A DNA stretch of 64,000 bases from NCBI GenBank assembly GCA_964388795.1, contig CAYMBV010000001.1, forward strand, positions 238,701 to 302,700, read 5' to 3'. The notes under the pieces are model-generated. The model made no database searches, was not told the DNA's origin, and saw nothing but the letters and a program-made list of their open reading frames with translations. Positions 4,874 through 54,678 of the stretch are shown here, piece after piece. The stretch is from an uncultured Candidatus Saccharibacteria bacterium (GTDB taxonomy: Bacteria > Patescibacteriota > Saccharimonadia > Saccharimonadales > Saccharimonadaceae). Within the stretch, counting starts at the first letter, position 1. Each line of letters starts with the position of its first letter. The position numbers and the translations under genes were made by a program.

Positions 4874-5344
4874 CTATCGCCCAACAATGGCTGCTAATTT
4901 ACTGCGCATTGCCTCGTAAGCTCCGTCAAAACCCAGCACTTTTAGCGCGCCAATCAGCACATACAATTCATCTAGTGTTATTTGGTCCTTCTTTTGGCCG
5001 TAGAGTGTGAATCGTGCGTTCACCGCATCAACCAGCCATTTTTCTCGCGCCGTGCGTGCCGCACCGGTGCCACCAGACAACACACCAGGATCGCCCGCTT
5101 TAGTGGGGCCGGTGCCAGTACCGTAGGTCGCTGAAATGACTTCAAGCGATCGCGCCGAATTATCACGCTTTTGCAAATAACCGCGCTCGATCAACCCATT
5201 AATATGCACGGCAACCGTTGAAACCGATTTATACCCAAGCCCACTCATAACTTCGCGGTAACTCGGTCCGTAACCATGCTCTTTAATAAAGGCGTCTACC
5301 CACAATAGCAATTCGCGCTGGCGTTTCGTTGATCGTTCGGTCAT
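4874..5344 (-). CDS. LexA-type winged-helix DNA-binding protein lacking the S24 peptidase domain
   Basis: TKRQRELL…FIKEHGYGPSYREV…LGYKSVSTVAVHINGLIERGYL…SARSLEV matches the LexA N-domain; no Ala-Gly site/Ser-Lys peptidase fold follows. Confidence 0.85.
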   Translation of the reverse strand: MTERSTKRQRELLLWVDAFIKEHGYGPSYREVMSGLGYKSVSTVAVHINGLIERGYLQKRDNSARSLEVISATYGTGTGPTKAGDPGVLSGGTGAARTAREKWLVDAVNARFTLYGQKKDQITLDELYVLIGALKVLGFDGAYEAMRSKLAAIVGR

Positions 5345-6615
5345 AAGTGCTCCTTACTGCGGGCCAAGACCATTGCCGCTAAGCCCCACCAAATAAGTGC
5401 CACCGTCTCATCCGCCCATACCGGCAGCAACATACCAATAACCAGCATGCCAATGCCGCTGGCGAACACCCCTAACGCCAGCCAATTTCGCCGCCGTTGC
5501 CATAATTTCTCTAACACTAAGTACGAAATAACGGTGAAGATTGCCAACCCAAGCCACCCAACTTCGTGTGCAATAAACAATAACTGGTTCTCGATAATAA
5601 CCGTTTTTTCACTCAATATCGACGCCGAACCTGTGCTGCCAATACCTCCGCCAAATGGTTGCTGGACCATACGCGCAAAACCATCGATAAGCGATTCAAC
5701 ATGCCCATCATTCGAGTTCGTGTCGTTCCCTTCGTGCGGATCTTCGTGCAAAATAACCTGCGACACAATCGGCGTCTCTCGAAGCACGAACAAACTACCG
5801 GCCAGCACCAACCCGGCAACTGCCAGCCCAACCCAGGCTATTTTCTTCACACGCCGCCCAAACACAACCAAGGCAATAATGACAACCGCGACTGCCAAAG
5901 CAAGACCAGCACTGCGTGAGTAACTAGACCATAGTGCCACCATGCTGCCGATTCCTAGGCCAGCAACCAGCCACACCTGCCACTTATCAAGCTTCTGTGG
6001 GCGACGCAGCCACAGCGCACCAAGGAACGCAAATACTATAACGGCATAAGCGCCCAACGGGTTCGGGCCGCGCAATGTGCTGTTAATACGAACGAAGTCC
6101 ATATTTTCGTCGACGGTTAAGAACGGTGCAATGGTTGCATTGCTATAGCCAATATATTTCAAAACATCATGCGGCAAGACCGTCGCCTGCAACAGCGCAA
6201 AACCCACTACTACCACCGCACCCGCAATAAATACCTTCACAAACAGCCCATACCACTTTGGATAGAGCCGCAGCGCCACAAATACTAAAACAAAGAACAA
6301 CAGATAGCGTAGATTAATCAGAAGCCCGGCAGTCGTCGCCTCAAAGCCAGTATAAAACAGGGGAATAAGGGCGATATTAAGCGCCGCAAACGCACCAATC
6401 AGCCAAAACAGCGGCGTATGAAACTGCGGCCAAGCCTTACGACGCGTCACTAAAATAATAGCCAAAACCAGCGCAACCCCTAGCAGTATTTCTTTCCAAG
6501 ATTTAATCAGTAACGAATAATCTGGCAACAGCGTTCCCAATCCAACCGAAAGCGGCGCGTGTAAAACAATTCCACCAAATACCACCAGGAGTATCGCCAC
6601 AAAAAGTTTATCCAT
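5341..6615 (-). CDS. O-antigen ligase / Wzy_C-like polytopic membrane protein
   Basis: ~12 TM segments; RINSTLRGPNPLGAY, SYSRSA, GGGIGS and ENQLL…E.G motifs typical of WaaL/Wzy_C. Confidence 0.8.
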   Translation of the reverse strand: MDKLFVAILLVVFGGIVLHAPLSVGLGTLLPDYSLLIKSWKEILLGVALVLAIILVTRRKAWPQFHTPLFWLIGAFAALNIALIPLFYTGFEATTAGLLINLRYLLFFVLVFVALRLYPKWYGLFVKVFIAGAVVVVGFALLQATVLPHDVLKYIGYSNATIAPFLTVDENMDFVRINSTLRGPNPLGAYAVIVFAFLGALWLRRPQKLDKWQVWLVAGLGIGSMVALWSSYSRSAGLALAVAVVIIALVVFGRRVKKIAWVGLAVAGLVLAGSLFVLRETPIVSQVILHEDPHEGNDTNSNDGHVESLIDGFARMVQQPFGGGIGSTGSASILSEKTVIIENQLLFIAHEVGWLGLAIFTVISYLVLEKLWQRRRNWLALGVFASGIGMLVIGMLLPVWADETVALIWWGLAAMVLARSKEHL

Positions 6616-6635: not shown

Positions 6636-8072
6636 ATGACACGCCGTAATTCCAAGCTCTACAGCTTTACCCTTATTCTGGTCGACGCTCTCGTTCTTAT
6701 TGCCGCCTTTTCCCTGGCCTACATTGCCCGCGTTTGGTATGACCCGCGGCCACTGCTGCATAATATCTACGGGTTCGACTACCTGTTTTCATTCCTGCTG
6801 ATTGTTCCGTTCTGGATTCTTATTTTTGCGCTGATTGGCCTGTACCAACCAAAAACGTACAACCGCCGGCTTATCGAATGGAGCAAACTGCTGATTGGTT
6901 CGTTCTTGGGTATCCTCTTAATTATTGGCTGGGAATATGTCAGTGATAAAGAATTCTTCCCTGCTCGCTTGGTCGCCGTGTACGCCTTAGTTGGCTCATT
7001 CGTCCTGGTCGTCGCTGTGCGTGAAATTATGCGGCTTGTCCGCACTTTGAGCTTCCGCTACGGAAAAGGGATTCGTCGCGTCTTGCTGATTGGCTCGTCA
7101 GACGTCGTCAACGACATCGCCCGTAACCTTGCCGACACGGCACATAGCGGCTACAAAGTTGTTGCGCTTGCCGGGCCGAAAAGAATTATCACCAGCACCC
7201 AGCATGGCCTTCATTTTTCATCCCCCGAAGCTGCCCTGAAACAAATTGACGAACTGGGTGTTTCAACCATTATCCAAACCGACCTGTACGAAAACCCTCA
7301 GCGTAACCAAGCGATTCTTTCAGCCGCCCAAAACCGGCACATCGACTATTGTTTTATTCCGGGTGAATCTGAGTTCTATTCGGGTAAAAACACGGTCGAC
7401 GTTTTCCTGGGCTACCCAATGATTACTGTTTACCAAACACCATTAGTTGGCTGGGGCGCCATTGTGAAAAGCATCTTCGATTTCGTGGTAAGTTTAGTGT
7501 TAGTTATTATTTTGTTGCCGTTCCTTCTGGTCATTTACCTTATTAAAAAGATTGCCGACCCAGGACCAGCCTTTTACATCAGCAAGCGCCTCAGCCGCTT
7601 CTCTGAGCCGATTGGACTTATTAAGTTCCGCAGCATGGGCGCACAGTATGGGGGCAAGGATGCCGCTGACGAGTTCCGCGCCATGGGTCGTGAAGACCTT
7701 GCCATAGAATACGAAAAAAACCGGAAGGTAGAAAACGATCCACGTATTACCAAGTTTGGTCAGTGGCTGCGCAAAACCTCTATCGACGAATTCCCACAGA
7801 TCTTTAACGTCTTAAAGGGCGATTTAAGCCTGGTGGGACCGCGCCCAATTTTACCGCAGGAAGTGAAACTGGCGAAAGGCCGCGCCGCGCTTCTGCACAG
7901 TGTCAAATCGGGTATGACTGGCCTGTGGCAAGTATCTGGCCGTAGTGAACTTAACTTTGATGAACGTATTGAACTTGAGGTGTTTTACGCACAAAACTGG
8001 AGTTTTTGGCTTGATATTAAAATCTTATTTAAGACTTTTTGGGTCGTCGTCAAAGGTAAGGGGGCAAAGTAG
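6636..8072 (+). CDS. Priming polyprenyl-phosphate glycosyl-1-phosphate transferase (WcaJ/CpsE family)
   Basis: N-terminal TMs, Rossmann-like LLIGSS region, C-terminal KFRSM…DPRITKFG…LRKTSIDEFPQIFNVLKGDLSLVGPRP…GMTGLWQVSGRS. Confidence 0.95.
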   Translation: MTRRNSKLYSFTLILVDALVLIAAFSLAYIARVWYDPRPLLHNIYGFDYLFSFLLIVPFWILIFALIGLYQPKTYNRRLIEWSKLLIGSFLGILLIIGWEYVSDKEFFPARLVAVYALVGSFVLVVAVREIMRLVRTLSFRYGKGIRRVLLIGSSDVVNDIARNLADTAHSGYKVVALAGPKRIITSTQHGLHFSSPEAALKQIDELGVSTIIQTDLYENPQRNQAILSAAQNRHIDYCFIPGESEFYSGKNTVDVFLGYPMITVYQTPLVGWGAIVKSIFDFVVSLVLVIILLPFLLVIYLIKKIADPGPAFYISKRLSRFSEPIGLIKFRSMGAQYGGKDAADEFRAMGREDLAIEYEKNRKVENDPRITKFGQWLRKTSIDEFPQIFNVLKGDLSLVGPRPILPQEVKLAKGRAALLHSVKSGMTGLWQVSGRSELNFDERIELEVFYAQNWSFWLDIKILFKTFWVVVKGKGAK

Positions 8073-8075: not shown

Positions 8076-9212
8076 ATGCCTCGCGCGCCTAAAATCGCCA
8101 TCATCCACGACTGGCTCACTACCATGGGTGGCGCCGAGCCATTGGTGCTAGAAATTCACAAGCTTTTCCCTACCGCCCCTATTTACACTTCCGTCTACGA
8201 CGCTGAAAAAATGCCCGCATTCCACGGCATTGATGTTCGCACCACTCACCTACAAACGAAGTTGCCAAAAAAGCTTCGCTTCAAACACGTCCTTTGGCCA
8301 ACCTTCCGTGCTCAGGCGTTCCGCCAGCTCGACCTATCCGAGTTCGATATTATTATCAGTAGCTCAAGCGCCGAAGCAAAAGCCGTCCGCAAAACTCGTA
8401 AAGGTCAGGTGCATATTGCCTATATCCACACCCCTATTCGCTATTACTGGAGCCATTACGAGGAATTTAGGAAAGAGTTTAGCTTTGGGGCGCTCACGCC
8501 GTTGATTCGCCCGTTTATTCCCTACTTTGTAAAGAAGATGCGCAAACTAGATCTAGAGTCGGTGAAAGATATCGACATCTTTATCGCCAACTCGACCATT
8601 ACCCAAGAACGCATTAAACGGTACTATAACAAGCCAAGTACCATCGTGTATCCGCCAGTCGATGTTGCCCGGTTTACACCGCCGCCAAAAGGGGAGCGGA
8701 GTGGTTATATTATTTGGGGTCGTCATGTCCCCTACAAACGGTTCGACCTTGCCATTAAGGCAGCGAACCAACTCGGCGTCCCGCTGACCATCACCGGGAC
8801 CGGCTCTGATACCGAACGACTCAAGGGGCTCGCTGGGCCAACCGTGCAGTTTGTCGGCCGTGTTAGTGACGAAGAGCTCGTGCGTCTTGCCCAAACCTCA
8901 AAGGCTTTCCTCTTCCCTAACGAAGAAGATTTTGGCATCGCCGCTGCCGAAGCACTTGCTGCCGGCACACCCGTCATTGCCTACAAAAAAGGCGGGGCAC
9001 TAGATATTGTCCAAGAGGGCGAAACCGGGTTGTTTTTTGAAGAACAAACCGTTGATAGTCTTGTCGATGCTATACAGCGATTCGAAGCACTGGTGGCCAA
9101 AAACCCCACTGCTTTTCTGCCTGCGACGTTGCACCGAAAAGCCAAACGGTTCGACAAAGGTCTTTTTGCCACCAAAATACGTAAAATTGTTGGCGACGCA
9201 ATGATACAATAA
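8076..9212 (+). CDS. GT4 glycosyltransferase
   Basis: HDWLTTMGGAE, YIHTPIRYYW, EDFGIAAAEALAAGTPVIAY. Confidence 0.93.
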   Translation: MPRAPKIAIIHDWLTTMGGAEPLVLEIHKLFPTAPIYTSVYDAEKMPAFHGIDVRTTHLQTKLPKKLRFKHVLWPTFRAQAFRQLDLSEFDIIISSSSAEAKAVRKTRKGQVHIAYIHTPIRYYWSHYEEFRKEFSFGALTPLIRPFIPYFVKKMRKLDLESVKDIDIFIANSTITQERIKRYYNKPSTIVYPPVDVARFTPPPKGERSGYIIWGRHVPYKRFDLAIKAANQLGVPLTITGTGSDTERLKGLAGPTVQFVGRVSDEELVRLAQTSKAFLFPNEEDFGIAAAEALAAGTPVIAYKKGGALDIVQEGETGLFFEEQTVDSLVDAIQRFEALVAKNPTAFLPATLHRKAKRFDKGLFATKIRKIVGDAMIQ

Positions 9213-10423: not shown

Positions 10424-11176
10424 TTAGATAACCGCTAGTACTGTTTCAAGACGGTTAACTGTATCTTCCCACTTCGAAACATCAAGGCAGGTAATACCAA
10501 ATGCCTTCACTGGGTAGTCGTTTCCGCCCTCTTCAAGCTTGTCGCCAAAGAATAAGATGTCATCTTTCGCGATATCGAGTTCTTCAATCAGCTTCTGCAT
10601 ACCATAAGCCTTGTCGATGCCCACACGGGTCACGTCAATCGAAGTCGTGCCACCAGCCCGTAACTCAAGTTCTGGCAAAGATTCGGCCGCAAGGTCACGA
10701 AGGGCAAGCTTCTTAGAACCGTCTGGATCCCAAGCGTATTTATCCTCTGGTGTCGCTTGCTGTCCTAATGCCGAGAAGGTAATTTGCGTGCCACGGTCTT
10801 CAATAACCTCACCTGCTGGGTTCTCAGGCCAAAGGCCAAGCTCGCGCGCCGAAGCCTCAAGAACTTCATAGACCTTCTTTTTCTGTTCTTCTGGCAACTC
10901 CTCGGCGTAGCGCTGCACCCACTCTTTAGTGACTTCGTCGTAGCGGTAATACTGCGTGCCACAAGTAGGCATGAGGTGCAAACGGCCTAACTTGTACGGT
11001 TCAATGTGGAGACGGTCGATAATTTGAAGACGGAACTGCTCGAAGCGTCCGCCGGAAATGACACATACCTCAAAATGCTCGAGCACGTTCGCGAGCGTCT
11101 CGGCCATCTGGTCACTAATAGGTGACTTAGTAATTGAAAGGGTGTCGTCGAGGTCGAAGGCTAGTAGTTTTTTCAC
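10424..11176 (-). CDS. HAD-IIB sugar phosphomutase, eukaryotic PMM (Sec53/PMM2)-like
   Basis: LAFDLDDTL (DxD), VISGG, IEDRGTQITFS, GGTTSIDV…GIDK, FFGDKLEEGGNDYP; GTG start overlaps the upstream TGA. Confidence 0.88.
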   Translation of the reverse strand: MKKLLAFDLDDTLSITKSPISDQMAETLANVLEHFEVCVISGGRFEQFRLQIIDRLHIEPYKLGRLHLMPTCGTQYYRYDEVTKEWVQRYAEELPEEQKKKVYEVLEASARELGLWPENPAGEVIEDRGTQITFSALGQQATPEDKYAWDPDGSKKLALRDLAAESLPELELRAGGTTSIDVTRVGIDKAYGMQKLIEELDIAKDDILFFGDKLEEGGNDYPVKAFGITCLDVSKWEDTVNRLETVLAVI

Positions 11177-11613
11177 GCTTGCTCATTTCCTGTTGCTTGG
11201 TTAATACGGGTTGACGAGTCGGCCTTTTCGGTGCCGCCAACGCCAAACTTCATTTCAATATTATAGTGGCGACAGACGTCACCTTCTGGAATTGCCTTCT
11301 CGGAGTCACGGTCGCCACCATTAGCGAAAACAAGCTCGTCGTCAGGATACTTCAAGGCAATCGCTTCGAGTGATTTAATCACCGACGGGTCTTCGTCGAT
11401 GGCAATCATCACCTCATCGACATCGCGTAGCGCACCAATCAGGCGTGCTCGGTTTTCAGCGGTAAGAATCACTTTACCCTTCTTCATGACTTGCTGATCA
11501 TCGTTATTGACGATAACAATTAATTTATCGCCAAGCTGTGCGCCGGCTTCAATCATATCCAGGTGTCCACCATGGAGGGGGTTAAAAAAACCACTTTCGA
11601 TGATAATTTTCAT
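11173..11613 (-). CDS. HxGH-type cytidylyltransferase (TagD/RfaE-II-like)
   Basis: SGFFNPLHGGH, VIVNND, VDEV, FANGGDR, C-terminal DSST. Confidence 0.85.
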   Translation of the reverse strand: MKIIIESGFFNPLHGGHLDMIEAGAQLGDKLIVIVNNDDQQVMKKGKVILTAENRARLIGALRDVDEVMIAIDEDPSVIKSLEAIALKYPDDELVFANGGDRDSEKAIPEGDVCRHYNIEMKFGVGGTEKADSSTRINQATGNEQA

Positions 11614-11620
11614 TTCTCTC

Positions 11621-13447
11621 CTATTCTACTGTTACACTTTTTGCTAAGTTACGCGGCTGATCGACATCATTACCCTTTTCGACAGCGACATAATAAGCAA
11701 ACAATTGACTAACAACATTAAACACTAGTGGTGTCAGCAGCTCGAGTTTCGTCTTAACCCTTATGACTGTCTCAGCTGGCACACGCTTATCAGTGTTAGT
11801 TATCACTATAGCATGAGCGCCACGTGCATTCATCTCAACAAGGTTACTAAATGATTTCTCATATAGCCAGTTGTCTTGCAGGTAGCAGACTTCAAAGAAC
11901 CGGTCATCAATGAGAGCAATCGGACCGTGCTTGAGTTCTCCCGCTGCATGCCCTTCAGCTTGTATATAGCTCACTTCTTTGAGCTTCAGCGCACCCTCAA
12001 GCGCCAACGGATACAGCGTGTCACGGCCAACGAATAGCGCATGCTCATAGTGTGCGTATTTTTTTGCAGCCTGCATAACATCTGCTGAAGATTTTTCTAA
12101 TACGGCTTCTATTTCACCCGGAAGCATGTCGAGCTCACGCGCGTAGCTTGTCAGCTCTTTTGGACTCGCGCCTTTTGCCTGCGCCAACATAAGCCCAAAC
12201 ATGGTAATGGTAGCGACTTGCGAGGTAAAGGCTTTGGTACTAGCAACACTTATCTCGGCACCGACATGCACATACACACCACCGTCTACCTCGCGGGCAA
12301 TTGTACTCCCTACGGCATTGATGATACCGAGACACCTGACGCCTCGACGCTTTAACTCCTGAAGGCAGGCGAGTGTGTCAGCTGTCTCACCTGACTGGGA
12401 AACGATCAGTGCGACCGTATTTTCCGGAGTATGGAACGACCGGTACCGTAATTCGCTGGCTATCTCTGAACGAACCACGACATCGTCGGTGAATTGTTCA
12501 ATGAAATACCCCGCCAGCACGCCCGCATAGTAGGCGGTTCCACAGCCAACAATAATGACATTCTTCACAGCACGTAACTCATCGTCGGTCATATTCAGGC
12601 CACCAAGTTTCACGGTGCCACTCTCTGCATTCACGCGACCACTCAGTGTCGCTCGTAGACTATTTGGCTGGTCGTGAATCTCTTTTAAAAGAAAGTGGTC
12701 AAAGCCTTTTTTCTGAATCGCCTCTAAGTCAAGCTCAAGCTTCTCTATTTTTGCTTCCACACTACGAGCGTCGATATCGTAGAGCTGTACGCCCTCTTTT
12801 GTACATAGTCCAATTTCACCATCGTGTAAATAAATGACCTGATCCGTGTATCCCACCAACGCAGAGGCATCGCTCGCAATAAACACCTCGTCTTCACCCA
12901 CACCAACAATCAGGGGGCTGCCCTTGCGCGCAATAACAATTTCGTGAGGGTTATTCTCCGAGAAGAGCGCAATTCCATACGCCCCAACGACGATTTTCAA
13001 GGCACTGGCTACAGCTTCCAACAAGTTCGCAGAACCCCTCAGAAGATAATCGATAAGTGCGGTCAGTACTTCTGTGTCGGTCTCGCTTTTAAAGTCGTAA
13101 TCCTGTGCAGTCAGCATTTCTTTCAGCTCTTGGTAATTTTCAATAATGCCATTGTGTACCAGATATACGGACCCAACATGGTGCGGATGCGCATTGCGCT
13201 TACTTGGCTCGCCATGTGTCGCCCAGCGGGTATGGCCAATACCTACTAGGTCATTCTTTTTATGGGTTGCTACCTTACTATCAAGCTCAGACACCTTACC
13301 TTTTGCTCGCAAAAGTGTTACTTTTGAGTTTTCATTAATGGTTGCAATACCGGCGCTATCGTACCCCCGATACTCAAGCCTTTTCAGCCCGCTCATAAGA
13401 ATTGATTGCGCTTCTTTACTACCTATATAGCCGACTATTCCGCACAT
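11621..13447 (-). CDS. glmS: Glutamine--fructose-6-phosphate aminotransferase
   Basis: MCGIVGY N-terminal Cys, LEYRGYDSAG, GHTRWATHG, HNGIIENY, SQSGETADTL, ASTKAFTSQ, DQPRNLAKSVTVE. Confidence 0.99.
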   Translation of the reverse strand: MCGIVGYIGSKEAQSILMSGLKRLEYRGYDSAGIATINENSKVTLLRAKGKVSELDSKVATHKKNDLVGIGHTRWATHGEPSKRNAHPHHVGSVYLVHNGIIENYQELKEMLTAQDYDFKSETDTEVLTALIDYLLRGSANLLEAVASALKIVVGAYGIALFSENNPHEIVIARKGSPLIVGVGEDEVFIASDASALVGYTDQVIYLHDGEIGLCTKEGVQLYDIDARSVEAKIEKLELDLEAIQKKGFDHFLLKEIHDQPNSLRATLSGRVNAESGTVKLGGLNMTDDELRAVKNVIIVGCGTAYYAGVLAGYFIEQFTDDVVVRSEIASELRYRSFHTPENTVALIVSQSGETADTLACLQELKRRGVRCLGIINAVGSTIAREVDGGVYVHVGAEISVASTKAFTSQVATITMFGLMLAQAKGASPKELTSYARELDMLPGEIEAVLEKSSADVMQAAKKYAHYEHALFVGRDTLYPLALEGALKLKEVSYIQAEGHAAGELKHGPIALIDDRFFEVCYLQDNWLYEKSFSNLVEMNARGAHAIVITNTDKRVPAETVIRVKTKLELLTPLVFNVVSQLFAYYVAVEKGNDVDQPRNLAKSVTVE

Positions 13448-13599: not shown

Positions 13600-14154
13600 A
13601 TGAAGATACACCAAAAGACAAAAAGAATACTTATTCCAGTTATCATCTCCCTCATTGTCATAGTATTGATAGCCGGTGGTGTTAGCGCATACTTCCTTGT
13701 CCTGAAGAACAACCAAGAGTCTGCTGATAAGGCCGACGACTCTTCTATTAACTACAGCCCCCCGACAGACCAAGAGGTTGATGCGAGCCAAGACGGCAAG
13801 AAAAATAATGATAATAGCTCGACAGACCCACAGTCAGAAGCCAATAAGCGAAAAGTATCCGTTGGTATTGCATTCGCAAATTACGACCCGGACGAGAAAG
13901 CAGTCGACATTCGCGCTTTCACGCCAGACGCCATAGAGGGCGACGGCCAATGCACTGCAACACTCACAAAAGGCGCCCAAACCGTCACTCAATCCTCTAG
14001 AGCCTTTATCGACTTCACCTCGTCGCAGTGTGAGCCAATCCTGATTGCTACAAGTAAATTTAGCTCTGGTGGCACCTGGAAGTTAACCGTTTCATATAGC
14101 TCCAGTAAGAGCACTGGTATCTCGCCAGTTATGGAAGTGAGCCTGAATATATGA
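13600..14154 (+). CDS. Membrane-anchored protein with small Ig-like/beta-sandwich domain
   Basis: N-terminal TM, Ser/Asp linker, C-terminal GQCTATLTKG…SSQC…GTWKLTVSYSS; stop overlaps the next ATG. Confidence 0.75.
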   Translation: MKIHQKTKRILIPVIISLIVIVLIAGGVSAYFLVLKNNQESADKADDSSINYSPPTDQEVDASQDGKKNNDNSSTDPQSEANKRKVSVGIAFANYDPDEKAVDIRAFTPDAIEGDGQCTATLTKGAQTVTQSSRAFIDFTSSQCEPILIATSKFSSGGTWKLTVSYSSSKSTGISPVMEVSLNI

Positions 14155-16172
14155 AATGCCTAATCAGTACACTACTAGTCCTAGCCTTCGCTGTACTCGG
14201 CATATTCTTATTGCCCCAAGCAAGTCACGCAGCCAACAAAAACGATTTTGACCCCGGATACATCGTTGACGATGCCGTCTTCTACAACTCCGGAGCAATG
14301 ACAACGGCACAGGTACAACGATTCCTTGAGTCGAAAAATCCAAACTGTGACTACAACGGCACTCAATCGGCAGCCGACTGGGGCTACCCAGGCCTTACCC
14401 ATGCACAGCTGGCTGAAAAGCTCCGCAAAGGCCAAATTACTATCTCTGGTGTTAATGGGTCAAAATTCCATGCACCTCCGTACAAATGTCTCACTATGTA
14501 CACACAAACAACCCCTCAGATGGAGGCAGCGAGTGAATACTGTAATGCAATAAATGCCGGTACTCGCACGGCCGCACAAATCATCAAAGATGTTGCCGAT
14601 GCCTGCGGTATTAACCCTCAGGTGCTTATTATTCTGCTGGAAAAAGAGCAAAGCCTTGTTACTGATAAGTGGCCATTAAACCGTCAGCTGCAAAATGCAA
14701 CCGGTTTTGCCTGTCCGGATACCGCCCCGTGTAACCCAGCTTATGGTGGCTTTTTTTATCAGGTGTACTACGCAGCGCGGCAATTCCAGGTCTATAAAGC
14801 CAACCCTAATGGTTACAACTACCGCGCAGGTCGAAATAATAACATCTACTGGCACCCCGACTTAACCCGTTGTGGGTCTTCTACTGTGTATATTCAAAAC
14901 CAAGCTACAGCAGCTCTCTATATTTACACTCCTTACCGACCCAATACAGCAGCCTTAAATAACCTTTACGGAACAGGTGATAGTTGTAGCTCTTACGGAA
15001 ATCGAAACTTCTGGCGAATATTTACCGATTGGTTTGGGTCGACGCGTGTCATGTTTGGTGACCTTCAAGCCCCAAGATGGATGCAACTGAAGACAGACAC
15101 CTACAAAAAGAACCCTATCACAGGTAGTGACGTTGACGGAGTACTCCCAGCGAAGACTCATATATTCTTCACCTCTAAGGTCGAGGTAGACGGGAAGTGG
15201 TATCTACGAACCGCACACGATACAGGACAAGGTGTCTGGAAGGGTATCCTCCTAGACAGCCTAGAAGAGGTGCCTCTTGTTTCTACGTCACTCCTTAAGC
15301 CACGATGGATGGAAACAAATGTTACAACTCAAAAAAGTGACCCCGCTACCGGATCTCCAAACGGCACGCAGCTCTCGGCGGGAGTGAAAGTATATTTTGT
15401 ATCAAAAATTAACATAGGCAACACTTCTTACCTGCAGACAAGTCGAGACGTAGAAGGTGGAGCTCTCACGGGCGTTCCTATTGGAGACCTTGCCGAGACT
15501 TCTGTTGAATATGTTGATCTTTTACAGCCACGATGGATGGAAGCAGCGAAAGCCACCTCCAGTCTTGACCTGCGGTCATACTCAAATACCGGCACTGCCA
15601 TCCAACCAGGCCAGCACCTATTTTATGATAAAAAGGTAACTATTAATGACACTACTTTCCTCACTAGTGGTGAGCCGGCATCCGGCACCTACACAGGCGT
15701 CCCGCTTGACGACTTAAAGGAAATTAATGCCGTCTATAGTACTCTAAAAATTCCTCGATGGATGATAATAAACACCGCAGCTTACAAAAGAAACCCTGTC
15801 ACTAATGCAACTATTGGCGATGAGCTACCTATTGGGACGAGAATTTATTTCCCTACGAAAATTACTATTGGTGATCAGGTCTACTTGCGTACCCAGTACG
15901 GCACCAACCATGAACTCAACGAGGCTATCCCACTGTCAGCTCTCAGCGAAGATTACGTCACCCTTCTTCAACCTCGCTCAATGCGCTTAACAGTAGACAC
16001 ATATAAACTGAATCCAACCACAGGAGCAACTTCAGGAGCATTACTACCAGCTGGTATGACATTCTTTTTCTCAACCAAAGTAGATATTTACGGTAAAACA
16101 TACCTACGCACACTTGACGACACGAACTCTCGGATAAATCTTGTTATTCCCCTCAATGTACTCACCAACTAA
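14151..16172 (+). CDS. Secreted lysozyme-like ('hemagglutinin-related') protein with five ~72-aa C-terminal repeats
   Basis: Signal peptide; FDPGYIVDD…INPQVLIILLEKEQSL…TGFACPDTAPC…ATAALYIYTPY…YGNRNFW…WFG domain; five L-x-x-PRWM repeats. Confidence 0.8.
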   Translation: MKCLISTLLVLAFAVLGIFLLPQASHAANKNDFDPGYIVDDAVFYNSGAMTTAQVQRFLESKNPNCDYNGTQSAADWGYPGLTHAQLAEKLRKGQITISGVNGSKFHAPPYKCLTMYTQTTPQMEAASEYCNAINAGTRTAAQIIKDVADACGINPQVLIILLEKEQSLVTDKWPLNRQLQNATGFACPDTAPCNPAYGGFFYQVYYAARQFQVYKANPNGYNYRAGRNNNIYWHPDLTRCGSSTVYIQNQATAALYIYTPYRPNTAALNNLYGTGDSCSSYGNRNFWRIFTDWFGSTRVMFGDLQAPRWMQLKTDTYKKNPITGSDVDGVLPAKTHIFFTSKVEVDGKWYLRTAHDTGQGVWKGILLDSLEEVPLVSTSLLKPRWMETNVTTQKSDPATGSPNGTQLSAGVKVYFVSKINIGNTSYLQTSRDVEGGALTGVPIGDLAETSVEYVDLLQPRWMEAAKATSSLDLRSYSNTGTAIQPGQHLFYDKKVTINDTTFLTSGEPASGTYTGVPLDDLKEINAVYSTLKIPRWMIINTAAYKRNPVTNATIGDELPIGTRIYFPTKITIGDQVYLRTQYGTNHELNEAIPLSALSEDYVTLLQPRSMRLTVDTYKLNPTTGATSGALLPAGMTFFFSTKVDIYGKTYLRTLDDTNSRINLVIPLNVLTN

Positions 16173-17303: not shown

Positions 17304-17711
17304 ATGTCAAAGACTCGTCAAGACAGCATAAAAAAAGAGGCCATCACCTTCACTCGACATATTATTGGTCAGCAACCCTCAGAAGCGGCCGTTCAACTTT
17401 ATGTACGGGCAATTGAACAACAAAAAAATGCGCTCAATAAAAACGATCAGCGACTACTCGCTATCATAACAAAGAAGCCGGGGACGACATCTTATATAGA
17501 TGCAGGCTTGGCGTTTCTCTATCCCCATTCAGAAGTCAGGCATCGACTGTACCTTATGTTTGCAATTTTAGAGTCGCTCCCTGAATACACAGAGTACTTC
17601 CTGCCAGTCAACCGCAGCCCTTGGTATATCTTTGTCGTGATTGGCGCAGGTCTACAATCAATCTTCAAGGCTATTGTCGGAATTATGATAGTAAAGGTCG
17701 TCACGAAATGA
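17304..17711 (+). CDS. Hypothetical protein with C-terminal hydrophobic segment
   Basis: 135-aa ORF tightly packed in the operon; ATGA overlap with the next gene. Confidence 0.75.
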   Translation: MSKTRQDSIKKEAITFTRHIIGQQPSEAAVQLYVRAIEQQKNALNKNDQRLLAIITKKPGTTSYIDAGLAFLYPHSEVRHRLYLMFAILESLPEYTEYFLPVNRSPWYIFVVIGAGLQSIFKAIVGIMIVKVVTK

Positions 17712-19324
17712 AAATATACGAATACATAGTTGTTGGATCTGGTTGTACTGGTGCCATGGCCGCTCAGACACTGGTTGACGCTGGTGTAGAGGTTGCCATG
17801 CTTGACGTTGGTATAGAAAATCCTGCATACAAAGGAAGTATTCCCGAGAATAAAGACTTCCTCACTATTAGAAAGACCGAGCCAGAACAGTACAAGTACC
17901 TAATTGGAAAAAACTTCGAAGGCGTTGCATGGGGTGACGTTGGCAAGGGTGAGCAACTCACGCCCGGACGTCGTCATATTATGCAATCAGTTGAAACACT
18001 CATTCCAGTAAAATCTCATTCTTTTACGCCAGCCGAAAGCCTTGGATACGGTGGACTCGGTATTGGCTGGGGGGTCGGCTGTTGGTCCTTCTCAGACAAT
18101 GAACTCTCTCAGGCGGGCCTTGATGTTGAGAAGATGCAAAAATCTTATAACACCATTAGTCGTCGTATTGGCATCAGCGCAACCAAAGATAGTGCGTCGG
18201 AATACACACTTGGCAAGGTGTCTACCTTTCAACCCTCGCCTATGATGGACGAAAATCACGAAAGCATCTATGATCACTATCAAAAAAAGGAAGCGTCTAT
18301 CGCGGCAGCTGGCTTCGTGATGGGCCGCGCACCGCTTGCGGTCATTACTCGTAATCTAGATGGTCGTAAAAAATACGCCTACAAAGACCTCGACTTCTAC
18401 TCAGACGACGACCAAAGTGCCTATCGCCCATGGATAACCGTAAATGCACTAAAAACAAAATCTAACTTCACCTATATAGGCAACCAGTTAGTTGTGCGAT
18501 TCAAAGAATCACACACCTTTACGAGTGTCTTTTGTCTAGATACCCAGACCAATAAAGAGATTGAGTTTAGGTGTAAAAAATTAATCCTCGCACCAGGTGT
18601 ACTAGGAAGTGCTCGTATCGCACTAAGGAGCTTTAACGCTGACAGTACAGTGAAACTACCGCTTCTCTGCAATCCCTATTCGTACATCCCCTGTATTCAG
18701 CCAAAAATGCTCGGTAAATCAACAAAGGCAAAAAAGCTTGGCTTTGCGCAGCTCTCGCTCTTCCTTGACGAAACCATGGATCAATCAGAGACTGCCATGG
18801 CATCCATCTACAGCTACCGTTCCCTAATGCTATTCCGCCTCGCCCGCCAGGTGCCCTTAAATTTTGGTAACGCACGGTCGATTCTACAATACATTAGCTC
18901 GGCTATCGTTATTATGGGCATCCATCAACCCGATCGACCAAGTAAAAATAAGTACGTTCAGCTTATCAAAGACAAGACATCGCCAACCAATGACGCACTT
19001 CGCATAGAATACAGTCTTAATGATGAAGAAAAGGCGAATCGAGCGCGGCGTGAAAAGAAGTATATGCGTATAATGCGCAGAATGCACGTCTATCCACTTA
19101 AGAAGTTTGACCCAGGGGCTGGGGCAAGTATTCACTACGCTGGCACACTCCCTTTTAGTACCACAGAAGATGCCTTCACCCTTGCGCACAACGGCCGCCT
19201 TCACGGCACGAAGACAGTCTTCGTTGCAGATGGCTCTGGGTTCACGTTCCTGCCCGCGAAGGGTCTTACCTTTACGCTCATGGCTAACGCTCATGTTGTA
19301 GCAGAAAATGCACTAAACGCATGA
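17708..19324 (+). CDS. GMC-family FAD oxidoreductase
   Basis: Start corrected to ATG 17708 (MKIYEYIVVGSGCTGA, GxGxxG); GYGGLGIGWG; LILAPGVLGSARI; IHYAGT; VFVADGS…P. Confidence 0.88.
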   Translation: MKIYEYIVVGSGCTGAMAAQTLVDAGVEVAMLDVGIENPAYKGSIPENKDFLTIRKTEPEQYKYLIGKNFEGVAWGDVGKGEQLTPGRRHIMQSVETLIPVKSHSFTPAESLGYGGLGIGWGVGCWSFSDNELSQAGLDVEKMQKSYNTISRRIGISATKDSASEYTLGKVSTFQPSPMMDENHESIYDHYQKKEASIAAAGFVMGRAPLAVITRNLDGRKKYAYKDLDFYSDDDQSAYRPWITVNALKTKSNFTYIGNQLVVRFKESHTFTSVFCLDTQTNKEIEFRCKKLILAPGVLGSARIALRSFNADSTVKLPLLCNPYSYIPCIQPKMLGKSTKAKKLGFAQLSLFLDETMDQSETAMASIYSYRSLMLFRLARQVPLNFGNARSILQYISSAIVIMGIHQPDRPSKNKYVQLIKDKTSPTNDALRIEYSLNDEEKANRARREKKYMRIMRRMHVYPLKKFDPGAGASIHYAGTLPFSTTEDAFTLAHNGRLHGTKTVFVADGSGFTFLPAKGLTFTLMANAHVVAENALNA

Positions 19325-23214: not shown

Positions 23215-26013
23215 TTATACGATACTTCTCTTTTTCGCATCATACTTAAGAATTGCATCATATACCCGACTCGCATTACTCTGGTCGTTCTTATAGTAAA
23301 AACTGTCGACACGTTTTTTATACTTCTGCGGCATAGTACATCCACCCTCAATCACCTTAACAAGCTCTTTCACCAAAGCCTCGTAGGTGTAGGCAATCGG
23401 ACCAAAACCATCATTCTCGTCAGAAAAGAAGTCTGCCTGATCATATGTGTGACGCTCGTAAAGTGTCTCGACATCAAACTGTGAGTAAATAATCGGCTTT
23501 TTTAAATAGGCAAAATCAAACATCACACTCGAGTAATCACTGACGAGTAGGTTACCTTCTTTAAACGCCTTTTTATAGTTGTACGGGTACTCTTTTACGC
23601 TAAAGTATTTATTTGCGTCAAAGTCAATCCGTTGGGCAGCAAAAGCAGGATGTAAGTAAAATTCACCGTGCATATTATTCTTTTTTAATACTTCCAAGAC
23701 ACGACTATCGTTCATAAAAGTATTATAAAAAGCGCGGTAATCTGATTTCTTAAATTCATTATCGTATTTACGCGCACCATTCTTGTCGGTCTTCATCCTC
23801 GCAAGATCTTTACGGTAAGTTGGCGCAAGAATGAGCTTACCTTTCGGCGCGCTCTCTAGTAGATCGTAGCGTGGCAAGCCGGTTAGAATGACGTTCTCTT
23901 TCGAGTAATCATAGGCGTACCTCAAGATAGAGTCGTATTCTTTTTGCGCACTCGTCACAAAGAGTGCGATGTTTTTATTGTAACGGTTGAGCCAGGTTGA
24001 TAAGTCATGCCTAATAATTCCGTGTTGCAAGAAAACGAAATCAAAGCCAAGTAAGTCAACAAAGTGATTCATCTGTCGTAGGAATGGGTTTGTCGTCTCT
24101 ATGTCAGCCTGTGAAGATATGACCTTATCAGAGAGGAGAAATAGAATACGGTAATACAAGCCGTTTTGATTTACCACCTTGCCGTACCGTTTTACTCTTT
24201 TATAGTCGGGGGATTTTTTTGATATGACGAAGTAAACATTTGCCTGGATATCACGGCGTGACTGAAGATGTCGAAAGAAGGCTTCACCGTTATCGCCTGC
24301 TGCGGTGCCGCGGTCACTGACGAGCCATATTGGTCGCTTTAAAAGTGGCTTGATAGTGAAATATATCGTGCGTAAAAGCAGCGTGCGTGGAATCATAACG
24401 ACAGACTCCGCAACGAGAAGAAATGGCTTTAAAACCTCAAATACTCTCGCTTTCAGTGAAATCGATGCAAGGTTATAGGTTTTGACACGATTCAATAACT
24501 TCTTGGCGTCTTTTAACTTCCAGTGTCGCATAATGCGTAGCCAATACTGAAGTTCGAACCGGGCGACACGCCGTGAACTATAAGGGTACACAGCGATCAG
24601 CTCGCCCTCCCTTCGAAGGATAGAAGGCCCCTTTTTTGTATAGGTGCGCTGAAGATCACTCAACCCAGAAAAGGCGTTTGTGTGGAGCGCAAGAGTTGTG
24701 TCTTTCTGACCACAAGCAAGTAGGTGGGCGCTGAGAGAATCTTCTGGAGCAACTTCAATCGTTACCTCGAAACCACCACCGCTATACAGTTGATCACCAA
24801 GGAAACTAACTTCACGCTGCCCACGCCTCGTGGAACAGAGCGGATAGTCACCCTTGGAAGTACGAAGTACAAAAACGTCACGGCTACTCACACCGTCGCT
24901 TGTCTTGTAGCCTTCGATTTTATACTTGCCCGACCCTACGTAGTGTATAAAATCGATATGTATATCTAATGAGTCTTTAGTGCTTGCGATAGTAATACCA
25001 TTAAAGACATACTTCCCGTTCTTAACCTCTAAGTACTTCTCGTAAGCAGCCCCGTGTTTCATTTTCAACAGCTGCACCCTGTAGCGGAGTGCAATCCCGC
25101 GTTTCTTAATAATGACCTCGTCATCAAGCTGCTTTACGATACCCTTAATTGTGTCCTTGTAGGCATGCTCTTCGTCAATATTAAGGACGTTCTGCTTTTT
25201 CTGATACAGCCGCCACACGAGGTCGCTTAGTACTTCATACTGCATAAAAGGCAAGACGCGGCCATCTTCTTCACGCCATAAATCAAGCATATAGAGGTAC
25301 GCATATTTCGGAACGGTCGTGTAAAAATCTCTGCTTTTTTGTTGCCGATTAATTGCTGAACTTTCATCACGACGCTTTCGATAATTATAATGTGGCCCCG
25401 ACAAGACGCCATAAGCTTTTTTATTTAAAAGAATCTCGCTGAGTATTCTGGCATCTTCAGATATCTTGAGTTTTTTGCTGAACTCTCTTCCTTTCAACGC
25501 CTCTCTTTTAAAAACACAGGTGGGCAGGTGAAATATCGGGTTGTCGGGATCTTTAGTAAGGTCTATTACCCGCGTTGTGTGAAACTTATAATTTGATGGG
25601 TGACTAGCAATATTTGCTTCAAAAAACAGCACCTTCGACGCAACAAAATCTACCGTATCGCCATGTGCCTCCATGAAGTCAACAGCATCTTTATAGACCG
25701 TCTCTGACCATATATCATCGCCGTCAAAAAAGTTGACGTACTTACCGCGCGCCCTCTTCATTCCGTTATTACGGGCCGCGCTCACACCTTGGTTCTTCTG
25801 ATTAATATAAATAATATTATCGGGGTACTTTTCGCTATACTCCTGACAAATATCGCCCGAATTATCGGGGCTTCCGTCATTGACTAGAATAAGCTCAACG
25901 TTCTCGTTGAACCCAATTGTTTGTTTAATAACACTGTCTATTGCTGCGCGTAGATACGGTGCAACATTATAGATAGGAATTATAACGGAAATGATTGGAC
26001 TTTTACTGCTCAT
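23215..26013 (-). CDS. GT2 + CDP-glycerol glycerophosphotransferase (TagF-like) fusion
   Basis: VIIPIYNV…VNDGS…FFDGDD (GT2); DNGEAFF, FLQHGI, TGLPRYD, LAPTYR, VSDYSSVMFDFAYLKKP (TagF). Confidence 0.9.
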   Translation of the reverse strand: MSSKSPIISVIIPIYNVAPYLRAAIDSVIKQTIGFNENVELILVNDGSPDNSGDICQEYSEKYPDNIIYINQKNQGVSAARNNGMKRARGKYVNFFDGDDIWSETVYKDAVDFMEAHGDTVDFVASKVLFFEANIASHPSNYKFHTTRVIDLTKDPDNPIFHLPTCVFKREALKGREFSKKLKISEDARILSEILLNKKAYGVLSGPHYNYRKRRDESSAINRQQKSRDFYTTVPKYAYLYMLDLWREEDGRVLPFMQYEVLSDLVWRLYQKKQNVLNIDEEHAYKDTIKGIVKQLDDEVIIKKRGIALRYRVQLLKMKHGAAYEKYLEVKNGKYVFNGITIASTKDSLDIHIDFIHYVGSGKYKIEGYKTSDGVSSRDVFVLRTSKGDYPLCSTRRGQREVSFLGDQLYSGGGFEVTIEVAPEDSLSAHLLACGQKDTTLALHTNAFSGLSDLQRTYTKKGPSILRREGELIAVYPYSSRRVARFELQYWLRIMRHWKLKDAKKLLNRVKTYNLASISLKARVFEVLKPFLLVAESVVMIPRTLLLRTIYFTIKPLLKRPIWLVSDRGTAAGDNGEAFFRHLQSRRDIQANVYFVISKKSPDYKRVKRYGKVVNQNGLYYRILFLLSDKVISSQADIETTNPFLRQMNHFVDLLGFDFVFLQHGIIRHDLSTWLNRYNKNIALFVTSAQKEYDSILRYAYDYSKENVILTGLPRYDLLESAPKGKLILAPTYRKDLARMKTDKNGARKYDNEFKKSDYRAFYNTFMNDSRVLEVLKKNNMHGEFYLHPAFAAQRIDFDANKYFSVKEYPYNYKKAFKEGNLLVSDYSSVMFDFAYLKKPIIYSQFDVETLYERHTYDQADFFSDENDGFGPIAYTYEALVKELVKVIEGGCTMPQKYKKRVDSFYYKNDQSNASRVYDAILKYDAKKRSIV

Positions 26014-26040
26014 ATTCTCTACTCTTCATTATAAGTCACT

Positions 26041-29000
26041 CTAGCGGAAGGGGAAACTTTTCATCAGGCTTCGTTGCATCCTCTTCAGGTTCACCACAGG
26101 CTCATAGGAATCAATGGCCTGCTGTATGGCCTTGGTGTTGCCAATAATCGAGGGAGTAACAGAGCGAGTTTCTCTTCCAGTTGATAGATAATAATCGGTA
26201 AATTTATAATCACCACCCGTCACTTTGTCGGACAGTGGCATCCAGTTGTTTGGAATATTAAAGCTGTCAGAAAAAATAATACCGTGCAATGATGACGAGA
26301 GTATATATTCGCAGGCAGTAATGTCACGTGCTACCTTGTCGGGTGTCTGTAATGGGTCTATCAGAAGGTAGTCTGGATCGTCCTTTACACCTTCGAGAGC
26401 TGGGTGATTTTTGTCTACATAATGAGCGATGATGCCCACTTTATGCGTCTTTCGCCTACTCTTCTTAAAAGTGCGGTTTGCTAACAAGCCTGGATCACCA
26501 ATAGCCACAGGGTGATGAGTAGTATCGACCCTTTTTAAGCTCAGTGGGCCACGTACTGCAGAGAAATCTATAGAACTAAGATGATTCTTGTCACCTGCTC
26601 GAATAAAGCCACTCCCCCACACCTTTACTGAATGGTCACCGGCGCCGCGTTGAACCATTTCGATAATTGACCCCGCCCCGGCAAGATCAGCTCTGTGTAG
26701 ACTGCTGTGTTCTGCTCTCAGGCCAAATAGAGATCGAATAATATACGGTGTAATTTCATCGCCAAAGTTAAGTTGTTCGGGAAAACTATATCGCCACCAA
26801 TATACCCTTAGACGCGGCCTACGTTTCGTACGAATTGTCGTTACAATACGCTTTTTTACCACTCCGTCGATGTATCTTGATGGGTCAATACTCAAAATTG
26901 ATTGGTATATGCGAAGACAGTTCGACCTGTCAATCCACCGGAAAAACGCCTTCAGCCTTTTTCGATACTGTCTCGCTAATACAAAGTTATTTTTAGCAAT
27001 CTTTTCGAGTTCACTCATAAGACCCTTGACGTCTTCTACGACAGGACCAAACCCACTCTCGCTATACGAATAGGACCCTTCGGACAGCGTATGCGAATCG
27101 TAGAAACTATCCTTATCGAACTGCACATACACCATTGGCTTTTCAAGGTATGCAGCATCAAAGGCAACACCAGAATAGTCTGTTATAAGTAGCTTCGCTT
27201 CTTCAATATATTTCTTGTAATCATGTGGTGGAGTTTGTATTTTAACGTATGCATTGCCTTTAAAATCTTTTGCTTGTGCCGCAATTGCAGGATGAAGTAC
27301 AAATTCGGCTTTTAGTTTATGCTTTTTAAGAAAGTGGTGGAATGTTTTGTTAGAAATAAGGCCTTGATAGAAAGTGAAGTACTCTGACGTACGAAACTCT
27401 TCGTTATAATCCCTGTCACTCGAGTCCTGTCGACCCTCGCCTGCAATATTTTTTCGCCAAGTAGGCGCAATGACAACTTTATTTTTCGCCACTTGTGCCT
27501 CGGCATACTTGTCGTATCTTGCAAATCCAGTCAGTACAACCTCTTGCTTATCGAATCCATACGGATAGATAAACATGGAGTCGTACTCCTTTTGGGTCAC
27601 GGTCGTATAAAGTGAGGCGTTTGTCGTGTACTTGTTATACAGTTTCGATATATCATCCTTGTTAATACCGTGGCTTAAAAAGATAAAATCATACTGAAGC
27701 AGATTACTTATCCTACTGTAGTGACGTCCGAATGGATTCAATGTCACATCTCCTGCCTGAGATGAAATAAGTTTATCAGCCAGCAAGAACAGTACTTTAT
27801 ACCTAAAACTATACCTATCAATGACTCGATACTGGCTACGAAGTCGTTTATAGTCTGGGCTTTGTTTAGAAATTGCAAAATACGGAAGAATTGTTGGGCT
27901 ATTCTGAGACACCACATACTTCAGCAGCGCTTCGGCATTATCACCAGCCATGTCCGTCCTGTCACTAAAAATCCAGACCTGTTTTTTGATAAAAATCTTA
28001 GACAAGAAATAAAGAACGCGATAGAACAGGCTGTGCAGAACAACCTTGTAGCCACCCTTCAAAATTCCAGCAGCCATTCGTGCCGAAAGTTTCAACTCTT
28101 TTACTGCCCGATTCGTGATAGTACTATCAATCAAGACAAGCTTACTTGGAGAGGCGCTGCATACTAGAAAGTCTTTAGCGACAATATAGTTATATCCTGG
28201 ATAGCGATCACTAAGGCGTGCGTGCGCCCCGAACTTCATGGGTATATACTTTATAAATCCGCTGTCTGCGTAAAACGTCGGTTGGATATTCTCGCCGTTT
28301 TTAATTGGGACCGTGATAGTAAACGAATTCTTATCAAAGATTACTTCATCAAGAAAGGTCTTTTGCGTATCTAGTCTAAAGACCTTCTCGGCTTCATAAA
28401 AAGTACCTCCTACTTTAAAGCCGAATCTGACGTTCCCGAACAAGATAGCGGCAACCGTCCCCTTAATGACAAGCTGCTTCCCTGATACCTTTAATATATC
28501 TACGTGAACGACACCCTCTTTGTTATAGTCATATATTTCTTCTTTATTAAAATATACCCTACCAGATTCATCGGCGTGCGTATTAAGAACATCTACGGAG
28601 TACTTCTTCGACAAAATAAGAAACTTCAACTCGGTGTGCAAGTCGGCCTGCGTCAGTATAACATCGTCGTCCATTTGAGATGTTAGCTCATAAAGCCTCT
28701 TCTTGTACGCCGCGGTTTCACGCCGAGAAAGCACTGGACTCTCGGCTTGCATAAAACGCCACTGCATCTCGTACATAATAAGATACTGCAGATACTTTTT
28801 TATTGTTTTATTAACAGGCTTGTGAGAAAGTTCCATTATATAACTATGAAACTCGTCGAGCATCTGTATATACCAGTGCTTCTTTGCGTAAAGCCCAGCC
28901 GTCGCTGAACCGCCAGCATCATGCTTCCTGTAAAAATATATGGGGTCAGCAACCACCCCATACTTCTTCTTCTTTAATATAATGTCCGTAATAAATAACA

Positions 29001-29580
29001 CGTCCTCAGCGATCTTCATACCGGTACGGAATCGGCTATTAGCAACTGCGCTACTCTTCACGAACGTCGAACCACCGGCAGACTGAACAGACGAGAACTC
29101 GGTCGCTATATCAATAACTCGGTCGCTATGAAACCTATAGTTCAGGGCATGCTCGCCCTCTTTAGAACCGAAGAGTTGCATGCGGATGGCCACAAGATCT
29201 ATCTCATTGTAGTGCGCATCAAAGAAATGAGAGACTTTTTCGGTAGTATCTAAAGAGAGCTTATCATCTGAATCGAGAAAGCTTATATACTTACCCTTAA
29301 CCTCATCAAGCCCGCGATTACGTGCACTACTGACACCTTGATTTTCCTGCCAAACATAGACGACGTTTTCCGGATACAACTTTTTATACTTCAGGCAGAT
29401 TTTCTCACTACCATCAGTACTCCCGTCATTAATAAGTATGAGTTGTATGTGTTGCTTAAAATCTAGGGTTTGCTGTAAAAGGCTTTCTACCGTTTCGTCT
29501 AAGTAGTGCTCGGCGTTATAGACTGGCATAACAAACGAGAATTTGTAGGTGTGCTTTATAGGATTAACCTCTTTTTTCAT
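26041..29580 (-). CDS. GT2 + TagF-like + polysaccharide pyruvyltransferase triple fusion
   Basis: GT2 N-terminus; DNAEALL, FLSHGI, TGFARYD, IAPTWR, ITDYSGVAFD; C-terminal NFGDEITP, VWGSG, AVRGPLS, GDPGLL, SSSLHGII. Confidence 0.88.
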   Translation of the reverse strand: MKKEVNPIKHTYKFSFVMPVYNAEHYLDETVESLLQQTLDFKQHIQLILINDGSTDGSEKICLKYKKLYPENVVYVWQENQGVSSARNRGLDEVKGKYISFLDSDDKLSLDTTEKVSHFFDAHYNEIDLVAIRMQLFGSKEGEHALNYRFHSDRVIDIATEFSSVQSAGGSTFVKSSAVANSRFRTGMKIAEDVLFITDIILKKKKYGVVADPIYFYRKHDAGGSATAGLYAKKHWYIQMLDEFHSYIMELSHKPVNKTIKKYLQYLIMYEMQWRFMQAESPVLSRRETAAYKKRLYELTSQMDDDVILTQADLHTELKFLILSKKYSVDVLNTHADESGRVYFNKEEIYDYNKEGVVHVDILKVSGKQLVIKGTVAAILFGNVRFGFKVGGTFYEAEKVFRLDTQKTFLDEVIFDKNSFTITVPIKNGENIQPTFYADSGFIKYIPMKFGAHARLSDRYPGYNYIVAKDFLVCSASPSKLVLIDSTITNRAVKELKLSARMAAGILKGGYKVVLHSLFYRVLYFLSKIFIKKQVWIFSDRTDMAGDNAEALLKYVVSQNSPTILPYFAISKQSPDYKRLRSQYRVIDRYSFRYKVLFLLADKLISSQAGDVTLNPFGRHYSRISNLLQYDFIFLSHGINKDDISKLYNKYTTNASLYTTVTQKEYDSMFIYPYGFDKQEVVLTGFARYDKYAEAQVAKNKVVIAPTWRKNIAGEGRQDSSDRDYNEEFRTSEYFTFYQGLISNKTFHHFLKKHKLKAEFVLHPAIAAQAKDFKGNAYVKIQTPPHDYKKYIEEAKLLITDYSGVAFDAAYLEKPMVYVQFDKDSFYDSHTLSEGSYSYSESGFGPVVEDVKGLMSELEKIAKNNFVLARQYRKRLKAFFRWIDRSNCLRIYQSILSIDPSRYIDGVVKKRIVTTIRTKRRPRLRVYWWRYSFPEQLNFGDEITPYIIRSLFGLRAEHSSLHRADLAGAGSIIEMVQRGAGDHSVKVWGSGFIRAGDKNHLSSIDFSAVRGPLSLKRVDTTHHPVAIGDPGLLANRTFKKSRRKTHKVGIIAHYVDKNHPALEGVKDDPDYLLIDPLQTPDKVARDITACEYILSSSLHGIIFSDSFNIPNNWMPLSDKVTGGDYKFTDYYLSTGRETRSVTPSIIGNTKAIQQAIDSYEPVVNLKRMQRSLMKSFPFR

Positions 29581-29596
29581 AGGATCTCCTAGTTCG

Positions 29597-30787: not shown

Positions 30788-30789
30788 AC

Positions 30790-44975: not shown

Positions 44976-44987
44976 AACTACCCTTTA

Positions 44988-47764: not shown

Positions 47765-47799
47765 ACCCTCGCTGATTCCCACTCCTTTAGCCGGTCTAA

Positions 47800-48789: not shown

Positions 48790-48798
48790 AGCTTGAGT

Positions 48799-51864: not shown

Positions 51865-51917
51865 AACTGCCTTCTATTAAACCACATTACTGCTTATATT
51901 TACATATAACTAAAGGG

Positions 51918-54590: not shown

Positions 54591-54678
54591 TACGACTCGG
54601 TTTTGCCCTCAGGGGTTAACAAACCGTTAAAAATCTGCTATAACTAACCTAGATTTCATAAGAAAGGATTCACTAACA

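Follow-up and report, generated by a model that had tools for sequence, protein, structure and literature searches.

The DNA analysed here is a 64,000-nucleotide stretch (hereafter the window) from an uncultured Candidatus Saccharibacteria bacterium, whose genome assembly comprises 774,589 bp in two contigs and is 97.75% complete. Three consecutive genes within it concern us: glmS, a gene for a small nucleotidyltransferase carrying an HxGH motif (the transferase) and a gene for a sugar-phosphate mutase of the HAD-IIB type (the HAD mutase; Table 1). Re-reading the sequence bore out the tight linkage reported in the original prediction: the genes lie on the same strand, with a 7-bp gap between glmS and the transferase gene and a GTGA stop/start overlap between the latter and the mutase gene. 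The operon is placed within a surface-glycan locus that encodes an O-antigen-ligase-like protein, a priming glycosylphosphotransferase and a GT4 glycosyltransferase, an arrangement that is kept in relatives. Promoter and terminator scans gave results no better than chance. The three genes do not always stay together: of 60 relatives, just one (G001) repeats the contiguous order seen here, and two others (G028 and G029) have the same order but with rmlA inserted.

Table 1. Features of the window, beginning with the operon under study.
Feature	Position	Strand	Size and characteristics	Family evidence
glmS	13447-11621	minus	608 aa	TIGR01135 above cut-off
HxGH nucleotidyltransferase	11613-11173	minus	146 aa, motif HGGH	'ANGGDR' family, PF01467
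HAD-IIB sugar-phosphate mutase	11176-10424	minus	250 aa, GTG start	PF03332, 4BND match
GT4 glycosyltransferase, WbaZ-like	8076..9212	plus	convergent with operon	PF00534
Polyprenyl glycosylphosphotransferase, WcaJ/WbaP-like priming enzyme	6636..8072	plus		TIGR03025 above cut-off
O-antigen ligase-like membrane protein	5341..6615	minus		PF04932 above cut-off
Two GT-A/TagF-like polymerase genes	23215-26013, 26041-29580	minus	GC 0.43	PF00535 and PF04464
Segment with both polymerases and Wzm/Wzt	23215-31620	minus	GC 0.43 versus 0.49
Repeat-containing secreted protein	14151-16172	plus	673 aa	no Pfam match at 1e-5
FAD oxidoreductase-like protein	17621-19324	plus	567 aa	no Pfam match at 1e-5
Type IV secretion/conjugation-like cluster	42333-55083		VirB4-like ATPase at 44988-46841

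The transferase and the GDP-mannose enzyme ManC were never found in the same genome. Across 61 genomes ManC was present in 26 and the transferase in 19, with no overlap where about 8 would be expected; in 251 Patescibacteria the corresponding numbers were 138, 30 and 0, against about 16 overlaps expected. The sole apparent co-occurrence (G184) turned out to be a cupin fused to the transferase itself. Similarly, in 50 further transferase genomes, for which completeness is not given and 13 of which are titled as bacteria or archaea from outside the candidate phyla radiation, matches to the ManC profile TIGR01479 were confined to the cupin region. Overall, none of the 96 distinct transferase genomes combined the transferase with the transferase domain of ManC.

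The two enzymes also exchange places. Immediately upstream of the HAD mutase gene, 20 relatives carry ManC and 10 carry the transferase. The exchange recurs in a housekeeping neighbourhood unrelated to this locus (order dnaN, recF, X, PH-domain gene, ruvB): in family f46, position X is occupied by ManC in six genomes and by the transferase in the remaining four, and family f123 exhibits the same swap. At least six such changes are forced on the tree of the HAD mutase and at least five on that of the WcaJ priming enzyme. Since the transferase occupies the slot of ManC and is never found together with it, we conclude that it is probably an unrelated enzyme with the same job.

Fusions and neighbouring genes give an indication of the substrate. 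Among 49 long homologues of the transferase, 17 contain a ManC-type phosphomannose isomerase (PMI) cupin (PF01050) and four a PF03332 phosphomannomutase (PMM). One open reading frame of 665 aa, with an Fcl-like gene after it, joins the transferase to the cupin and to GDP-mannose dehydratase (Gmd); a second frame combines the transferase with Gmd. These are single frames in two genomes, but each retains a potential start codon for the dehydratase, so that they may be in-frame runs. Operons comprising the transferase, the HAD mutase, a cupin and a GH130 mannoside phosphorylase also occur, with GH130 in tandem at loci L140-L142. Within 4 kb of the transferase at 80 genome loci we found the cupin 22 times, Gmd 8 times and the HAD mutase 6 times, and ManC, TagF and GmhA not at all; a cupin was present at 35 of 80 viral loci. 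In being coupled to a mutase, a PMI cupin and Gmd, the transferase family has a genomic role like that of ManC. The fusions name mannose as the sugar, and suggest GDP as the nucleotide.

By family, however, the transferase is not a ManC. The GT-A domain of that enzyme (PF00483; TIGR01479 positions 1-350) is missing, with PF01467 found instead, and the protein passes PF01467 and TIGR00125 only, and no specific equivalog. Its predicted model (pLDDT 91.8) has an HxGH Rossmann-like fold that matches HldC, 3GLV, TagD and Fom1 about equally well (Z 15-16.5). The match to HldC (RfaE domain II; 5X9Q) has a Z of 16.5 and a root-mean-square deviation of 2.3 over 120 aligned residues, although HldC and TagD are not told apart by the fold search, their Z scores lying within about 1 of each other. 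The transferase shares with HldC the HxGH and GGD..PE motifs; its sequences xSG, NND, KG, DxT/P and NGG/KGG, the counterparts of further HldC motifs, come close to these without matching them exactly. The substrate of HldC is a manno-configured sugar-1-phosphate, as we propose for the transferase. Unlike HldC, the transferase falls far below the cut-off of the RfaE-II profile TIGR02199 (46 versus 181.5 bits), and no heptose pathway genes (GmhA, heptose kinase) were found with it. The HldC fold can also act on a hexose-1-phosphate, in the form of a beta-Glc-1-P surrogate, with ATP as the nucleotide (PMC7993394).

Members of the family begin with a conserved SGxFxPxHxGH and have a FANGGDR..PE..C core. 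They number more than 1,200 clusters at 50% identity below 1e-10, the weaker of which may be neighbouring families. Thousands of these proteins, from Patescibacteria, marine bacteria, phages and some DPANN archaea, carry the labels TagD, RfaE or FAD synthase. Members are frequent on viral contigs (L269-L348; L148 and L149), being fused to a cupin in 23 of 80, and cyanophage homologues sit among DNA-replication or heptose genes. A second subtype, FTKGGDR, lies between nrdR and trxB-like genes in all 13 genomes of family f48 (L115-L127), none of which has ManC, and precedes the HAD mutase in G219.

The HAD mutase passes the PF03332 (PMM) and TIGR01484 profiles. Homology extends over its full length, with the DxD nucleophile motif, the motif II Ser, the motif III Lys and the GD..GGND motif IV of HAD-IIB enzymes, and the catalytic residues are invariant across 37 sequences. 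The original prediction had described it as a eukaryotic-type PMM. As a refinement of this, the closest solved relative is the alpha-phosphoglucomutase (alpha-PGM) PgmH of Lactococcus lactis (4BND, E 1.9e-55), which is far closer than the eukaryotic PMMs (about 1e-10). It resembles both in its full-length match, in its catalytic residues and in the phosphohexomutase family replaced. It differs from them in its coupling to ManC in the 20 relatives mentioned above and in a mixed set of cap residues: Q139/K146 are as in PgmH, where PMM2 has the phosphate-binding R134/R141, and S179/D181 are as in PMMs, where the lactococcal enzyme has T/N.

We found no alpha-D-phosphohexomutase in this genome. 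The HAD mutase (37 of 61 genomes) and a PF02878 phosphohexomutase (14 of 61) never occur together. When tested, a PF02878 protein scored as a ManB-type PMM/PGM (E 1.6e-149) and much less well as GlmM (E 6.6e-56). By these profiles the HAD mutase is a replacement for a ManB/Pgm-type phosphohexomutase, and the earlier idea that it substitutes for GlmM was not upheld. Furthermore, 22 of the 37 genomes that carry it have no GlmS, and it is therefore not a dedicated GlmM. HAD-type PMMs can be bifunctional PMM/PGM enzymes (PMC8808168). Since GalU, encoded at G000 C2:315647-316525, is the only GT-A nucleotidyltransferase that we found in this genome, the HAD mutase would be expected to serve both glucose and mannose; it probably acts as both PMM and PGM, and the context favours Man and Glc phosphates as its substrates.

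Taken together, these results make it likely, in our judgement, that the transferase and mutase catalyse the two final reactions of a route to GDP-mannose that is assembled from unrelated parts. The genome encodes a bifunctional phosphoglucose/phosphomannose isomerase (PGI/PMI) that passes its cut-off and would convert fructose-6-P to mannose-6-P, so that the route through mannose-1-P to GDP-mannose would be complete. The HAD mutase would then produce alpha-mannose-1-P by way of an aspartyl-phosphate intermediate, doubling as the phosphoglucomutase of the cell for GalU. The HxGH enzyme, judging from its genomic context, would use mannose-1-P to attack a nucleoside triphosphate (most likely GTP) at its alpha-phosphate, releasing pyrophosphate, and so do the job of ManC on the Rossmann-like HldC/TagD fold instead of the GT-A fold. 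The product would be used by GT4 mannosyltransferases encoded in the surface-glycan locus. A candidate consumer is the convergent GT4 gene, which is kept at the same place in relatives and matches 2F9F, 'first mannosyl transferase wbaZ-1' (E 1.5e-12); GDP-mannose as its donor is suggested by this match, which is not the top one, pterin glucosyltransferases scoring slightly higher. The glmS gene would be co-transcribed but separable.

Compared with the ManA-ManB-ManC pathway and its type II PMI-GMP enzymes (ManC/CpsB, AlgA; TIGR01479), the proposed chemistry, the slot and the partners (PMI cupin, mutase, Gmd/Fcl) are the same. Unlike that system, however, the transferase is an HxGH protein of 146 aa and not a GT-A enzyme, the mutase is of the HAD-IIB type and the isomerase is a distant PGI/PMI of the SIS type. 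We propose that the pair works like ManB-ManC while being a member of neither family. The GDP-mannose pyrophosphorylases characterised so far adopt the GT-A fold, and among sugar-1-phosphate transferases only HldC, which acts on heptose, is known to have the HxGH fold. The literature searched, which omits most subscription journals, yielded no description of a mannose-1-phosphate transferase of the HxGH type. With somewhat more reserve than for the pathway itself, we favour the idea that the 'ANGGDR' family represents another class of GDP-mannose pyrophosphorylase, unrelated in structure to the first.

Several observations weigh against this interpretation. The HldC precedent uses ATP and a beta anomer, and the nucleotide is not identifiable from the sequence of the transferase. 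Gmd is absent from this genome, so that the assignment of GDP rests on other genomes. Nor is Gmd enriched with the transferase: it was found in 7 of 30 transferase genomes, in 19 of 83 with neither enzyme and in 52 of 138 with ManC. Its being as frequent where both enzymes are missing indicates that a third route to GDP-mannose exists, probably by Mpg1-like GT-A proteins, and some transferase genomes do hold further unassigned GT-A transferases (in the cleanest case, G209, Gmd scores above its cut-off and one GT-A protein is unclassified). Neither the transferase nor ManC is present in 16 of the 61 relatives, several of which keep the GT4 gene. On the mutase side, the closest characterised enzyme acts on glucose, and no mutase was recognised in five of the genomes with the transferase. 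Finally, since the genomes are metagenome-assembled and kin are not independent, the p-values overstate the strength of these associations.

An alternative close to the proposed one is that the transferase makes another nucleotide sugar on the mannose axis, such as ADP-mannose, CDP-mannose, a product with the beta configuration or, as HldC does, ADP-heptose. The best fold match is indeed HldC, albeit tied with 3GLV, TagD and Fom1; the HldC alignment runs through the GGD..PE motif, where alignments with TagD end near residue 70; and one cyanophage homologue lies among heptose genes. However, GmhA and heptose kinase were not found in this genome (GmhB was not searched for) or beside the 80 genome loci, and the Gmd fusion with its Fcl-like neighbour, as well as the exclusion of ManC, point to GDP. 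We therefore regard this alternative as unlikely.

The original prediction had instead placed the operon in amino-sugar activation, with the HAD mutase standing in for GlmM and the transferase for the uridylyltransferase half of GlmU, or activating GlcN-1-P directly. GlmS is, by its sequence, catalytically intact and canonical, scoring 742 bits against a TIGR01135 cut-off of 418, and 14 key residues (including the glutaminase Cys1 and the SIS isomerase residues) are invariant in 18 relatives. As had been anticipated, searches of this near-complete genome found no canonical glmM or glmU, and no full-length GlmU was found in any of the 61; a Doudnabacteria-like genome (G222) encodes the N-terminal domain of GlmU on its own (L161). 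A MurA-family gene implies a demand for UDP-GlcNAc, for which we found no source in this genome. In one such protein (510 aa; L054:1267-2799, G000 C1:109672-111204) an XRE helix-turn-helix is fused to the MurA/EPSP-family domain. Moreover, glmS, present in 22 of the 61 genomes, nearly always adjoins the mutase/transferase slot, whether ManC or the transferase occupies it, and it adjoins the transferase in a Dehalococcoidales-titled genome (L194).

Nevertheless, the distribution of GlmS does not follow that of the transferase. GlmS is missing from 9 of the 19 transferase genomes, and 12 of the 22 GlmS genomes lack the transferase, usually having ManC in its stead. GlmS is thus found in 10 of 19 genomes where the transferase is present and in 12 of 42 where it is absent (Fisher p 0.09). 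We conclude that glmS is a variable, loosely linked passenger of the locus. In addition, the fusion partners are mannose enzymes, and searches of this genome for a hexapeptide or GNAT acetyltransferase, the GlmU N-domain, NagA and NagB found none. GNAT presence does not track GlmS, 8 of the 22 GlmS genomes being without any, and a UDPGP/NagU search gave no match but neither did its control, so that this negative is uninformative. Compared with the GlmS-GlmM-GlmU pathway and its NagU variants (bioRxiv 10.64898/2026.06.23.733835), then, only GlmS is alike; GlmM, GlmU and the acetyltransferase were not found and the neighbours do not track GlmS. What survives of the prediction is a route from 6-phosphate through 1-phosphate to nucleotide sugar by non-orthologous enzymes; an amino sugar as its substrate is argued against by the exclusion and slot of ManC and by the missing acetyltransferase, and we consider a dedicated route of this kind improbable. 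Since the HAD mutase is the only sugar-phosphate mutase found in the genome, a side activity on GlcN-6-P is possible. That the pair is promiscuous enough to take GlmS-made glucosamine-6-P all the way to a nucleotide sugar, bridging the GlmM/GlmU gap in Saccharibacteria, has in our view only a slim chance of being correct.

A role as a TagD-like synthase of CDP-glycerol or CDP-ribitol for the two TagF-like polymerases, which were located where the original prediction had put them, 10-16 kb from the operon, is very unlikely. The transferase is of the same superfamily as TagD (1COZ, E 8e-9; also 2B7L), with a common size, fold (Z 15.6) and N-terminal half, and automatic annotation labels it a glycerol-3-phosphate cytidylyltransferase. 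Sequence likeness ends near residue 70, however, the TIGR01518 match covering residues 4-70 only and reaching 38.9 bits against a cut-off of 165.4. Nor does the transferase co-occur with TagF, which was found in just 4 of the 61 genomes and is absent from 17 of the 19 with the transferase, making the TagD role unlikely; the polymerases were rejected as its customers on this distribution. Two of the genomes with TagF (G042 and G059) have a TagD-like gene of their own beside it, and G018, which shares the GT2-TagF polymerase (49% identity), has ManC where the transferase would be. GpsA, GlpK and IspD/TarI were not found in the present genome, and GT-A/TagF-like polymerases can transfer hexose-phosphate, which needs no CDP-polyol (PMC5974469). 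Least probable of all is an archaeal RibL-like FAD synthetase or other cofactor adenylyltransferase lying in the glycan locus by chance: the superfamily is the same and 1 of 49 homologues has a weak FAD_syn match, but riboflavin kinase PF01687 was not found in the genome (the CTP-dependent archaeal kinase was not searched for), NadD is a separate gene, and the exclusion of ManC and the fusions to mannose enzymes would be left unexplained.

Elsewhere in the window, the second TagF-like polymerase carries a C-terminal pyruvyl-transferase domain, and the segment containing it resembles group 2 capsule polymerases. The type IV secretion/conjugation-like cluster, as read from its sequence, also contains several pilin-like genes. 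In three relatives (L049, L056 and L068), two genes resembling subunits of ATP-citrate lyase/succinyl-CoA synthetase lie within the glycan locus near the transferase.

If the GDP-mannose assignment is correct, an HxGH enzyme of 146 residues in the role of ManC would add a new example of enzyme convergence, and a widespread mis-annotation would be corrected. A gap in the pathway would also be closed for about 12% of the sampled Patescibacteria, organisms whose surface glycans are poorly understood.

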